64,000 bases of DNA, taken from NCBI GenBank assembly GCA_041320515.1, contig JBGLNR010000001.1, positions 1,047,658 through 1,111,657 of the forward strand, read 5' to 3'. Both the position numbers and the translations under genes were made by a program. This document shows positions 25,528-54,587 of this stretch, one piece after another. The stretch is from Planctomycetota bacterium (GTDB taxonomy: Bacteria; Planctomycetota; PUPC01; DSUN01). The notes beneath the pieces are model-generated. The model ran no database searches. It was not told where the DNA came from and was given only the letters and a program-made list of their open reading frames with translations. The number at the start of each line of letters is the position of its first letter. The stretch's first letter is position 1.

Positions 25528-26732
25528 CTGATTTCTGGATCGAGCGCTACTTCAGGCTGCCCGAGCACCTCACGGTCGAGGGCAAGCCGGTCGTGATCAT
25601 CTTCAGCCCGCATCGCCTCACCGACGATATGAGCACGCCGGCCGTGGCCGCCGCCTTCGCCAGGATGCGCGAGCGCTGCCGCGCCGCCGGCCTGCCGGGC
25701 CTCTACCTCATCGCCTGCGCGGGGGCCGACCGCGGCTCGCTCGAACGCCTCAAGGCCGAGGGCTACGACGCCGTCTCCGGCTACAACTACCCCTCGCTCG
25801 GCTCGAACGGCCGCCGCCAGTTCCCCTACGCGGACAACGTCAGTGCATACAAGGAACTATGGAAGGCCGCGGCCGAGCTTCGCCTGCTCAGGGAAATCCC
25901 CGTCCTCAGCGGCGGGTGGGACGCGCGGCCCTGGCACGGCCAGGGCGCCCTGGTCCTCGCGAACCGCTCCCCTGCCCTCTTCGAGCGCCACTGCCGCGAC
26001 GCCAAGGAGTTCCTGGACAAGCGAGACGGCGAGACGGGGCCGCCGCTCAAGACAGGCGAGGAGTCCGCGTCTCCGACGCGGAAGAGGGCTTCCGCCCCGG
26101 AGGGGCGGACTCCGAAGATGTGCCTGGTCGAGGCGTGGAACGAATGGGGCGAGGGCTCCTACATCGGCCCCCATCGCGAATGGGGCTTCGGCTACCTGGA
26201 CGCCATCCGCCGCGTCTTCGCCCCCGATTCGCCCGCGCCCGCGCCAATCACCCCGCGCGACACCGGCCTCGGCCCCTACGACCTGCCCCGGCCCAAGGAG
26301 GCGTTCAAGGCAGCCTGGGACTTCTCCCGCCCCGAGGACCGGGCTGAGTGGCAGGCCGACGCTCAGATCAAGCTCGGTGCAGCGGCCCCGGCGCTCAAGG
26401 GCACGTCCACGGGCAGCGACCCGATCCTCGGCGGCCCCGTCGTCCGCATCCCGGCCGACAGCTTCCCATGGCTCTGTGTCGAGATGCGCACGTCGAAGCC
26501 GGAGCGGCCCCAACTCTTCTGGAGCACCACCACCGCCCGCGTGAGCGAGAACAACAGCGTGCGCTTCGACGTGCCCGGCGACGGGGAGTTCCACGCTCAT
26601 TGGGTCGAGCTGGGGCGCGTCCCCTACTGGACCGGCCTCGTCACCGGCCTGCGCTTCGATCCAGCCAACGCCCCGGGCATCGAGTTCGAGATCCGCGCCC
26701 TGCGCTTCGCCGCCCAGCGCCCCGGGGACTGA
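25399..26732 (+). CDS. WbsX / GH99-like glycoside hydrolase domain protein, 5'-truncated
   Basis: KFCLLWANHN, VEGKPVVIIF, GWDARPW, EAWNEWGEGSYIGPHREWGFGYLDAIR; no start codon at the breakpoint. Confidence 0.75.
26060..26113. repeat. REP-like palindrome inserted in-frame
   Basis: GGAGTCCGC...GCGGACTCC, 54 bp with internal hairpins, encoding an EESASPTRKRASAPEGRTP linker. Confidence 0.6.
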
Positions 26733-26761
26733 GGGCGAAACTGCCCCCGGGGCGCCTGCTC

Positions 26762-26930
26762 GCCATACTTGATCAACCCTGAGGGGGGAGGAAATGATCA
26801 AGTATGGCAGGGAAGGCCCCGGAGCCGCCCGGATCGCCAAAGCGCCATACTTGATCACCCCCGGGAGCTGGGAGGAGTGATCAAGTATGGCTGAGAGGGC
26901 CGCAGAGCCCGCCGGATCGCCAAAGCGCCC
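26762..26930. repeat. Two tandem ~82-bp hairpin units
   Basis: GCCATACTTGATCA...TGATCAAGTATGGC at 26762/26795 and 26844/26878, each followed by CGGATCGCCAAAGCGCC. Confidence 0.85.
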
Positions 26931-26973
26931 ACTGCACCACTCCCTCGGGGGGGCAGGTGGGCCGCCTGTGCCT

Positions 26974-51742: not shown

Positions 51743-52650
51743 TGCTCTTTCGTCAGCTCCATGAACAGGGTGCGGAGGCTCTTGAGCTGGGGCGAAAGCT
51801 CCTCGAGCGCGACGCCGCCCTTGACCAACAGGTCGGCGATCTGGGCGGCATCCTCCTGGCGGGTGGTCACGAGGAGGCGATTGCCCTCGCCCGCGATGCC
51901 GTGGACCCAGGGGCGGCCTTCGAGGAGGCGGCGGGCCTTCGCGGGGTCCGACACCACGATGCGATACGCGCGCAGCTCCTCGGCGAGCAGCGAGCGCACT
52001 TCGCCGCACACCAGTAGTCGCCCGTCCTTGATGATTGCTGCGCGGTTGCAGATTTCCTCCACCTCGTCGAGCAGGTGGCTGGAGATGAAGATGGTGATTC
52101 GCTCCTCCCTTGCCAGGCCGCGGAGCAGGTGGAGGAACTCGGCCTTCCCCTCGGGGTCGAGGCCCGTGGTCGGCTCGTCGAGGATGAGGAGCGGGGGCCG
52201 CGTGAGCAGCGCCTGGGCGATGGCGAGGCGCTGGAGCATGCCGTGGGAGTAGGTCTTGACTTTCTTGACGCAGGCCTTCTGGAGGCCGACGGCCTCGATC
52301 ACCTCGTCAATGCGGGGCTTCGGCACGCCGCCGGCGGTCTGGGCGATGAGAGCGAGGTTCTTTCGGCCCGACAGGTGGCGGTAGAAGGCCGGGATGTCCA
52401 CCATCGCGCCCACTTGGGCGATGGCCGCGAGGAAGTCCCGCCGGGCGTCAATGCCGTTCACCTCGATCCCGCCGCTCGTGGGCCGCACGAGGCCCACGAT
52501 CATCCGCATCGTCGTCGTCTTCCCCGCCCCATTTGGCCCGAGGAACCCGAACACGTCTCCCTCATTCACCTCTATGCTGAGCCGGTCCACCGCCGTGAAG
52601 CGCCCGAAGCGCTTGGTGAGGTCAATCGTCTTGAGGACGGTTCCCGGCAT
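51739..52650 (-). CDS. ABC transporter ATP-binding protein
   Basis: GPNGAGKTT, YSHGMLQR, LDEPTTGLD, SSHLL. Confidence 0.95.
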   Translation of the reverse strand: MPGTVLKTIDLTKRFGRFTAVDRLSIEVNEGDVFGFLGPNGAGKTTTMRMIVGLVRPTSGGIEVNGIDARRDFLAAIAQVGAMVDIPAFYRHLSGRKNLALIAQTAGGVPKPRIDEVIEAVGLQKACVKKVKTYSHGMLQRLAIAQALLTRPPLLILDEPTTGLDPEGKAEFLHLLRGLAREERITIFISSHLLDEVEEICNRAAIIKDGRLLVCGEVRSLLAEELRAYRIVVSDPAKARRLLEGRPWVHGIAGEGNRLLVTTRQEDAAQIADLLVKGGVALEELSPQLKSLRTLFMELTKEQ

Positions 52651-52665
52651 TGTCAGCACTCTCCC

Positions 52666-53328
52666 TCACTCGCTCTCTAGAGCCGAAACGGCGGCGCGGA
52701 GGTCACTGACAAACGCAGCGAACCTCGGGCAGCGCATGCACAGTGCGTCCAGCTCCGCCCGCGTGAAGCCGTCGAACAAGCGTTCGGGGTCGTGCCCTTT
52801 CTTGTAGCGGGTGTGGCGGAACTGGTTGAAGAGGGCATCAACCACCTTGCTCGGGTATTGCTCGAAGTCCTGGTCCTCAGGGTTCCGGCTGTAGCGCTTC
52901 GCAATGTCAGCGGTCGTGCGCAGATAGGCTTTCAGGCGCTCTGGGCACGCGAGAACGATGGCCTCGAAGTCGTGTCGGAACGGATGGGGATGGAAGCGCC
53001 TCAGCGCCGCGACGGCCCGGCGAACGCCTAGGCGCGCGCTGAGTTGGCCCCTTACCTCGCGCCGGAGGAAGTCCTGAAGTCCCTCGCAATCACGGTACTC
53101 CCACTTGGTTCCAAGGTACGCCTTGTTCGGGGCCAAGTCAGGACACGCGAACGCATGGGCGTCGCCCTCGCGCACCAGAAGCTTGGCCACCGCGGCGCCG
53201 ATGCGGCTCAGGAATGCCCCAGATAGCGGCACCGGAGCACGGACCCTGCGGGAAGCGTAGATGTCTGCAAGGATCCTCGGGAGCGCTTGGACCTCGGCAA
53301 CCCCCTCGACGTAGATGTAGATGCTCAT
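52666..53328 (-). CDS. DUF4276 family (TOPRIM/RloB-like) protein
   Basis: YVEGVAE, acidic PD position, HDFEAIVLA, YKK, CPRFAAFV; ATGA overlap with the ATPase. Confidence 0.7.
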   Translation of the reverse strand: MSIYIYVEGVAEVQALPRILADIYASRRVRAPVPLSGAFLSRIGAAVAKLLVREGDAHAFACPDLAPNKAYLGTKWEYRDCEGLQDFLRREVRGQLSARLGVRRAVAALRRFHPHPFRHDFEAIVLACPERLKAYLRTTADIAKRYSRNPEDQDFEQYPSKVVDALFNQFRHTRYKKGHDPERLFDGFTRAELDALCMRCPRFAAFVSDLRAAVSALESE

Positions 53329-54587
53329 CCGAGTTCATCCAATTCGCCTGACCTGAAGGCAAGCCGCAGACGCTCCTCATCCACCTGCTTCTCTCCAGCG
53401 ATCTCTTCCGTCACGATGTCGTAGAGCAGGGCGTGGTTGCGCGGCCAGACGATCTGCGCGGCGCCGTCCCGCTTCCTCAACACGGCGATATTCTCCAGGG
53501 GCATGTCGTAGAGCAGATCCGGGGAATGGGTGAGAACGATCACCTGGCTCCGTTCCGCGGCATGCTGCAAGAGTCCGCCAACAAGTGGCAACACCTTCGG
53601 GTGCAGGCCGACCTCCGGCTCGTCGAGACAGAGCACGGGAGGCGGGTACGGGGCGCAGCAGACCACACCCAGAAGGAGCAGGCGCAACGCGCCATCGGCG
53701 AGGTCCGCCGCAGAAAGCGTGGCGTCCACCCCTCTCTCCCTCCATTGGAGCAGCACGTACCTGCCCGAAGGGTCCACGGTCGGGCGGAGGGTGGCGAACT
53801 CGGGAAGGGCCGACCTCAGGAAGCCCAGAAGCTCGTCCCGATTGCTCTCGTGCTCAAGGTTCGTGAACAGAGAGAGCAAGGTCGGCCCGAGGTTCTTGCC
53901 GCTTTCGTCGAGCACCGTGCCGTCGCCGAGGGCCTGCGGTTCACGAAGGGGCGCCGTCCGAGTCGCCCGGAACTCCGTGTAGAAGCGCCACAGCAGCACC
54001 TCATTCCGGACCGCATAGCTCTCCGGGAACCGTGGGTCGGTGGCCCGGCTGAGCAGGCACTCGCCCGGCCCGAGCTTCCATGTGTGCTTCCTGTCGTACT
54101 CGTGGAAGATGCCCTCGCCGTTCGCCGCGCGAAACAGGAGCTTCCTGCCCTCTAAGGCCCCAGCCCCCCTCGCAACGGGTCGGCGGCCCTCCGTGCCACC
54201 ACTGGCACGAGGCCGCGGCTGTGCAGGCGTGGCCCGTTCTCGTTCCAGCACCTCGTCCTCGATAGTAGGGTGCTCGGGGCGGCGAATGGTCGCGCAGTAC
54301 GCATACCGGGCACGGGCGAGACCATCTGGCGGCCTCTGCGGGGCAAGCGTCACTCGCCACTGCATCGCACCACCGGCGTCCGGGTGCAGCACCTCACCGA
54401 TGAAAGGCCGCGACTCGATCCCTGACGGGAGGCGACCCATGCCGCACGAGGCGATGGTCCGGAGCAACTCGATAAAGGTCGACTTGCCGGTGCCGTTTGC
54501 CCCGAGGAACACGTTGATGTCGGGCCGCAGTCTGGTCTCGAAGTCTTTGAGGAGTCGGTAGCCCTTGACGCGGATGTGCTCGATCAT
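53325..54587 (-). CDS. AAA_21-type / ABC-class ATPase
   Basis: GANGTGKS, LADGALRLLLL, CLDEPEVGLHP, VLTHSP. Confidence 0.85.
   Translation of the reverse strand: MIEHIRVKGYRLLKDFETRLRPDINVFLGANGTGKSTFIELLRTIASCGMGRLPSGIESRPFIGEVLHPDAGGAMQWRVTLAPQRPPDGLARARYAYCATIRRPEHPTIEDEVLERERATPAQPRPRASGGTEGRRPVARGAGALEGRKLLFRAANGEGIFHEYDRKHTWKLGPGECLLSRATDPRFPESYAVRNEVLLWRFYTEFRATRTAPLREPQALGDGTVLDESGKNLGPTLLSLFTNLEHESNRDELLGFLRSALPEFATLRPTVDPSGRYVLLQWRERGVDATLSAADLADGALRLLLLGVVCCAPYPPPVLCLDEPEVGLHPKVLPLVGGLLQHAAERSQVIVLTHSPDLLYDMPLENIAVLRKRDGAAQIVWPRNHALLYDIVTEEIAGEKQVDEERLRLAFRSGELDELG

Follow-up and report, generated by a model that had tools for sequence, protein, structure and literature searches.

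Palindromic repeats of probable REP/REPIN type inserted in frame in three genes of a planctomycete contig

Introduction

Repetitive extragenic palindromic (REP) elements are defined, and usually analysed, as extragenic sequences. A stretch of 64,000 nucleotides from the Planctomycetota contig JBGLNR010000001.1, here called the window, raises the question of what such palindromes are doing inside open reading frames (ORFs) and how they came to be there. The window DNA has a G+C content of 64-73%, the source contig measures 5,973,921 bp, and the best matches of the window proteins belong to uncultured Planctomycetota metagenome-assembled genomes (MAGs). The initial annotation had located palindromes at four intragenic sites, and at all four they lie at the coordinates given and in frame. 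These sites are element A in an HzsA-related protein, element B in an esterase-like protein, element C in a GH99-like protein and site D in an ATPase. A, B and C are very probably palindromic repeats of the REP type, or of the type of REP doublets forming hairpins (REPINs), which were inserted in coding DNA and are now read through as protein.

Overview of the palindromic elements

Of the five clusters of elements in the window, three lie within genes. The elements were folded as single-stranded DNA and each was compared with 200 shuffles, which all five beat: z = -7.9 for A, -3.9 for B, -4.8 for C, -5.2 for an intergenic doublet at 37047-37104 and -9.8 for an intergenic palindrome at 59103-59172. 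The stem-loops of A, B and C have the dimensions of REPs (stem of 5-13 bp, loop of 2-20 nt). Inverted pairing of units is found in B, C, 37047-37104 and 59103-59172, and A is organized as a direct unit, an inverted half-unit and a second direct unit. The window contains 109 hairpins whose stems reach 7 bp or more, versus 47 +/- 9 in Markov simulations. An Rfam scan of the window and of six array-bearing loci returned tRNAs only.

It had been proposed that palindromes are inserted in frame in at least three proteins and that several independent families are adding peptide loops to proteins. For A, B and C this holds: orthologues are without the segments, B being shared only with the two nearest relatives, and the motifs of all three have many further copies elsewhere. 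Gaps and multi-copy families thus support the proposal for three proteins.

Element A in the HzsA-like protein

Element A (34845-34955, + strand) lies in the C-terminal 657 codons (33809-35780, + strand) of an HzsA-related, cytochrome-c (CxxCH) protein, which matches Pfam HZS_alpha and has 6731 homologues. Two exact copies of GGCACAGGCGTCCCGCCTGTG were found at 34860 and 34935 (0.01 expected). The two direct units, 34857-34880 and 34932-34955, are GTGG-headed and have an 8-bp stem and a TCC loop, with an inverted half-unit at 34900-34911 between them. The direct-inverted-direct palindrome of 99 bp (34857-34955) reported just past a CxxCH is present as described, and its 33-residue peptide begins seven residues past CLRCH.

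The net insertion of 102 nt (34 codons) is recognized from the orthologue gap, the repeat copies and the fold. In the alignment, the 34-residue segment is a clean gap in 17 of 17 orthologues, including those that are 77-79% identical, and at the DNA level locus L120 lacks exactly 102 nt. L122 (100% identical) and L123 (99.2%), independent assemblies of nearly the same organism, carry the insert as well, which is therefore not an assembly artefact. P0007, a paralogue in the window's own genome, has GGTGVPPV at a different site.

The orthologue P0009 carries a 21-residue insert of its own, RAGVPRLVPPGAPASTGGPGG, at another site (alignment columns ~856-876), which may be an independent palindromic insertion. 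The host ORF itself (32595-35780) is an in-frame chimera, in which a truncated clpB (32595-33808), corresponding to the N-terminal ClpB half with Clp_N, AAA and AAA_lid_9, is joined at 33808|33809 to the HzsA-like gene from codon 183. In L122 and L123, to which the identities above apply from 33809 on, the gene is intact (838 aa) and preceded by a LOG-family gene. Either the 5.97-Mb contig is misassembled or rearranged at this point, or the chimera reflects a genuine deletion or fusion.

Element B and its intergenic relative

Element B (48334-48388, - strand) is a doublet of two inverted REP units within an alpha/beta-hydrolase (acetyl-xylan-esterase-like) gene (47752-49827, - strand). It adds a net 39 nt (13 codons) and encodes GGVSPRRDTRDRD. 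Its first unit, GTAG followed by GCGGGAC-gtccct-GTCCCGC, occupies 48335-48358 on the + strand, and the second, GTGG followed by GCGGCGTG-tcccc-CACGCCGC, occupies 48364-48387 on the - strand, with stems of 7 bp and 8 bp. In locus L117 both heads are GTAG.

The doublet at 37047-37104, an intergenic REPIN-like element with no strand assigned, consists of two inverted units headed CTAG and GTAG and separated by a 7-nt spacer. It had been assigned to the same family as B, and this is borne out by a 17-mer, TAGGCGGGACGTCCCTG (with at most one mismatch), common to B and both arms of the doublet (3 matches versus 0.40 expected).

In 16 homologues of at most 80% identity, B corresponds to a 13-residue gap. 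The two closest relatives (84% and 82%) share B, their DNA being nearly the same there, and it was found in independent metagenomes. Since it occurs only in these two nearest relatives, B is, as judged from the alignments, a real and older insertion rather than ancestral sequence. Compared with L117, the window has two changes in the 57 nt of the B insert, both outside the stems, whereas elsewhere in the gene 14.2% of positions differ (P = 0.009, a single case). This low divergence, in one case, fits structural constraint or homogenisation among copies.

Element C and the palindrome at 59103-59172

Element C (26048-26113, + strand) adds 66 nt (22 codons), encoding KTGEESASPTRKRASAPEGRTP, to a GH99-like/WbsX-domain protein of 402 aa as called (25524-26732, + strand). 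This peptide is a clean 22-residue gap in 15 of 15 homologues, the closest at 72%. The core (26060-26113) is an exact 54-nt tail-to-tail doublet of two inverted 25-nt units, GGAGTCCGCGTCTCCGACGCGGAAG and GGAGTCCGCCCCTCCGGGGCGGAAG, which are GGAGTCC-headed and have 7-bp stems and a TCC loop. The four differences between the two units form two compensatory stem pairs.

The ends of C were said to resemble the intergenic palindrome at 59103-59172 (28-bp arms, no strand assigned). Each arm of the latter has indeed a GGAGTCC head followed by a TGCC-TTCA-GGCA hairpin, and it is possibly a relative of family C.

The AlphaFold (AF2) model of the GH99-like protein is confident, with a mean predicted local distance difference test (pLDDT) value of 84.5. 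Its only long segment with pLDDT below 50, residues 175-192 (18 residues), is the C insert, and a 5-residue dip follows at 207-211. The loop is located between a helix (150-167) and the strand leading toward the invariant EAWNEWGEG motif.

The GH99-like gene (region 25398-26732) matches only residues 498-919 of orthologues of ~920 aa, and no match to their N-terminal half was found upstream of it. The gene is either a short form or truncated.

Site D in the AAA ATPase

A possible palindromic insert at 54184-54215 (- strand), within an AAA_21/AAA_15 ATPase gene (53325-54587), was not supported. The site has a hairpin with a 7-bp perfect core, which alone is unremarkable because ~47 such hairpins per window are expected by chance. 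The only close ATPase homologue (52% identity) has a segment of similar length, without a clean gap, and the region is a variable loop across the family. The syntenic AAA gene of L117 was rejected as an orthologue (28% identity), so D was compared with the 52%-identical homologue only. The sequence of D, GGTGGCACGGAGGGCCGCC, bears a faint resemblance to a family-A unit, and the site could be a decayed copy of that kind.

Family copies in other genomes

The family-A 21-mer was searched in a collection of species-representative genomes and gave at least 144 copies at at least 116 loci. The listed loci are mostly from Phycisphaerae and Planctomycetota MAGs. The family also occurs on long contigs of Verrucomicrobiota, Desulfobaccales and other 'delta' lineages, Acidobacteriota, Chloroflexi and Armatimonadota. 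The B pattern was found at 17 loci, in VGYV01, DATKZY01 and a Brocadiia MAG. Of the 26 loci with the C pattern, 24 come from VGYV01 (42 units on 24 contigs), a sister MAG which is ~87% identical to the window in syntenic genes. Within the genome from which the window comes, copies were examined in the 64-kb window and the paralogue P0007.

Intergenic tandem arrays of family A with a 41-nt period are present in a Phycisphaerae MAG (L029:884-1109 and L049:6166-6795). They were rejected as CRISPR arrays, since the 17-nt segments between units are near-identical, and they are also too short for spacers.

Association with RAYT genes

It had been suggested to look for genes of REP-associated tyrosine transposases (RAYTs) flanked by the same palindromes. 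Such genes were found in other genomes, as RAYTs for family A and as a RAYT-like ORF for family C. The RAYT genes of L027 (a Desulfobacca MAG, 82 bits) and L076 (a Deltaproteobacteria MAG, 87 bits) exceed the NCBIfam cut-off of 80 and have family-A units on both flanks. In L136 (VGYV01), an ORF of 231 aa (170-865) lies between tandem family-C doublets with a 54-nt period on both flanks. It has the motifs PNHVHLL (HUH) and YIAENPSKAHL (Tyr). The Escherichia coli RayT query sequence was approximate and served as a lead only, its matches being re-tested with Pfam and NCBIfam. When related loci were sought with the RAYT-like ORF of L136, the search yielded that ORF itself and otherwise only distant acidobacterial relatives, and none of the members of its 90% cluster comes from the 5.97-Mb contig.

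The ORF at L007:5289-6040 is a strong RAYT (NCBIfam, 181 bits) and lies between inverted copies of a different GTAG-family REP, GTAGGGCGTGCAACTTGTTGCACGCGGAAT, with family-A units 1-2 kb away in the same locus. At L076:4500-4970 the RAYT next to family-A units is split over two frames, with a 'VYFITWRC' N-terminal part in one and the HUH part in the other. Either the gene is a pseudogene with a frameshift or the sequence contains an error.

Coding compatibility

Among the matches listed, 25 of the 144 family-A copies are located in long ORFs whose G+C content is high at third codon positions (GC3) and normal at second ones (GC2), mostly in the GTGVPPV or TGGTPVP frames. This occupancy of 17% compares with 40% for random positions in the same loci, and that of family B, 29%, with 64%. 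For family C in VGYV01, 18 of 29 clusters (62%) are in long ORFs versus 73% of random positions in the same loci. The C-bearing ORFs include SecA, a GH2 enzyme, a pyruvate phosphate dikinase (PPDK)-like enzyme and a molybdopterin oxidoreductase. Of 20 dispersed copies of C, 17 have a core doublet of 51 or 54 nt, a length bias which could result from common descent of a few master copies. Neither A nor C has a stop in any of the six frames, a property shared by 12% of random 54-mers of like composition.

It is conceivable, though we hold it only tentatively, that the lineage of this planctomycete has one or more REPIN families, C among them, that are compatible with coding and have ORFs as their ordinary habitat. 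If this is true, REPIN spread would be a steady source of new protein loops and not purely extragenic. The frequency of C in ORFs, close to that of random positions, is the single aspect that may exceed what has been published. If the pattern extends to the whole genome, the view of REPINs as lasting solely in intergenic DNA would have to be revised.

Origin of the elements and alternative explanations

The orthologue gaps, the multi-copy families and the RAYT genes flanked by the same units in relatives can be brought together in one scenario. A RAYT (HUH/Y1 family) encoded elsewhere in the genome would recognize the hairpin and its 5' tag on single-stranded DNA, and would then copy or move units and doublets. 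Intragenic copies would outlast selection only if their length is a multiple of three, the frame is stop-free and the insertion falls in a surface loop or a linker. The surviving inserts would be loops of 13-34 residues, rich in Gly, Pro, Arg, Ser and Thr. In this scenario the inserts would be translated and the loops presumably neutral.

Several points weigh against this scenario. Tblastn with four RAYT queries and a motif regular expression found no RAYT gene in the 64-kb window, as the initial annotation had stated. That a RAYT mobilises the units in the window's organism is therefore argued by analogy with relatives, whose RAYT or RAYT-like ORFs are flanked by A or C units, and a cognate RAYT of its own is presumptive. 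No RAYT adjoining family B was found among the loci examined. The sole NCBIfam match of the L136 ORF, REP_Tyr_transpos (E 5e-17, 62 bits), is below the cut-off of 80, and its Pfam Y1_Tnp score is 20.9 bits for a cut-off of 23. None of the 31 full C doublets has a GT[AG]G tag, all of them beginning with GGAGTCC; by its tag, C is not a GTAG-tagged REP, and in the sister MAG its behaviour is like that of a RAYT-linked REPIN. The AF2 model of the HzsA-like fragment is poor (pLDDT 55), and insert A falls in a coil with pLDDT below 50, in a model too poor for confident mapping. The missing orthologue gap at site D also counts here.

Some of these points would be expected if the elements were miniature transposons, similar to MITEs (miniature transposable elements with inverted repeats), moved by a non-RAYT transposase (for instance a conventional TnpA of IS200/IS605 or a DDE enzyme), with the RAYT neighbourhood being incidental. 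The window without a RAYT, the tag of C and the sub-threshold L136 ORF all agree with such a mover. So does the all-against-all ORF clustering of the listed family-A loci (at least 116), which gave no recurrent neighbour gene and therefore no obvious linked mobiliser. We nevertheless regard this origin as improbable, as in L136, L027 and L076 the same units occur to either side of an ORF of RAYT type, and neither MITE-type terminal inverted repeats nor target-site duplications are visible in the elements. Another explanation, compatible with insertion of REP/REPIN-type repeats and not exclusive of it, is that the palindromes are more than passengers and are kept for a role as signals in DNA or RNA (in the stability of mRNA, in pausing of translation, or as sites for gyrase or integration host factor (IHF)) or as functional loops. 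The low divergence of the B insert, with changes outside the stems, and the purely compensatory differences between the two C units speak for it. Gene conversion between copies, or constraints set by recognition by the transposase, would however lead to the same conservation, and the host proteins are unrelated, with the sites being loops or linkers, so that we give this explanation a low probability. A local origin by slippage, by hairpin-driven duplication in GC-rich DNA or by assembly artefact is the default for D. Chance hairpins are abundant at high G+C, at the rate given above, and the odd clpB-hzsA junction occurs in the same assembly. For A, B and C, such an origin is contradicted by identical units at many unrelated loci and in other genomes, by the presence of A in three independent assemblies and by that of B in independent metagenomes, and we consider it highly improbable.

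If A, B and C are repeats of the REP/REPIN type, REPs would be routinely written into proteins in bacteria of the Planctomycetes-Verrucomicrobia-Chlamydiae (PVC) group. Such in-protein REPs would inflate apparent sequence divergence, create disordered loops that confuse alignment and structure prediction, and be mistakable for lineage-specific motifs. The datable series, with B in three lineages and A absent from a 79%-identical orthologue, would offer a small natural experiment on peptide tolerance and evolution.

Other repeats in the window

Tandem repeats of the 9-nt sequence GATCCGTCN, in 4-5 copies, are found at 32519-32567, directly upstream of clpB, and recur at 56141-56180, upstream of an ORF starting near 56224 on the same strand. 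Two composite palindromic elements of ~170-250 bp, 21310-21560 and 26975-27143, have inverted GAGTATGGCCCCCAGTYCTGG ends (3 matches, 0 expected) and look MITE-like. The second encloses the hairpins CCCTCTCCC...GGGAGAGGG and CCCCCTCCC...GGGAGGGGG, both of which recur at 47638-47734. Downstream of the GH99-like gene, at 26765-26890, two intergenic palindromes, GCCATACTTGATCA...TGATCAAGTATGGC, represent another repeat family. Long perfect hairpins are present at 30476-30508 and 40489-40519 (stems of 15 bp and 14 bp); a dnaK-like ORF starts near one of them, and two genes of the minus strand flank the other. Both hairpins are unrelated to A-C and may be regulatory or terminator structures.

Comparison with known systems

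GTAG-tagged REPs and REPINs are said to be associated with RAYT transposases, in work attributed to Nunvar in 2010 and to Bertels and Rainey in 2011. The elements of the window resemble these classical systems in their units of 20-25 nt, their GT[AG]G head (A and B), their 7-8 bp stem, their inverted doublets, their dispersed multi-copy families and the RAYT flanks in relatives. They differ in that classical REPs are overwhelmingly extragenic, whereas three of five clusters in the window are intragenic, and in the GGAGTCC head of C.

Rickettsia palindromic elements (RPEs), reportedly described by Ogata et al. in 2000, are inserted in frame in functional proteins, to which they are said to add surface peptide segments. 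The likeness is one of behaviour only, namely in-frame palindromic insertion into proteins: RPEs measure ~100-150 nt, belong to CGTC-type or other families and occur in reduced intracellular genomes. We know of no transposase dedicated to RPEs. Bacterial MITEs, for example those of Coxiella burnetii, reportedly also insert in frame and, as non-autonomous small repeats, alter proteins (PMC5896051). Unlike A-C, MITEs have terminal inverted repeats derived from insertion sequences (IS) and target-site duplications.

The closest precedent is found in Verrucomicrobia. The GTAG- and CGTC-tagged REP superfamilies have been defined and found in Planctomycetes and Verrucomicrobia (Di Nocera, De Gregorio and Rocco 2013, PMC3733652). 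REPs wholly within ORFs were reported there, in the highest numbers in Opitutus terrae and Rickettsia conorii, and more than half of these intragenic REPs are dimers encoding 20-30 residues (PMC3733652). The 'GTAG-19' intragenic REPs of O. terrae encode GTGVPPV, TGGTPVP and a 23-residue peptide (PMC3733652 Additional file 3); they occur as single units or dimers in ordinary proteins, among them HrpA, a TonB receptor and UvrA, and the GTAG head is mutated to GTGG in an O. terrae family (PMC3733652). The peptides of families B and C are absent from Additional file 3 of the same paper, and a full-text literature search for the family-A sequence found no paper. Family A encodes the same GTGVPPV and TGGTPVP peptides as GTAG-19, in Planctomycetota instead of Verrucomicrobia, and judged by these peptides it is a known family in a new host. 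In-frame intragenic REPs are thus already published and the window is a new instance of them, in which B and C appear to be uncatalogued families.

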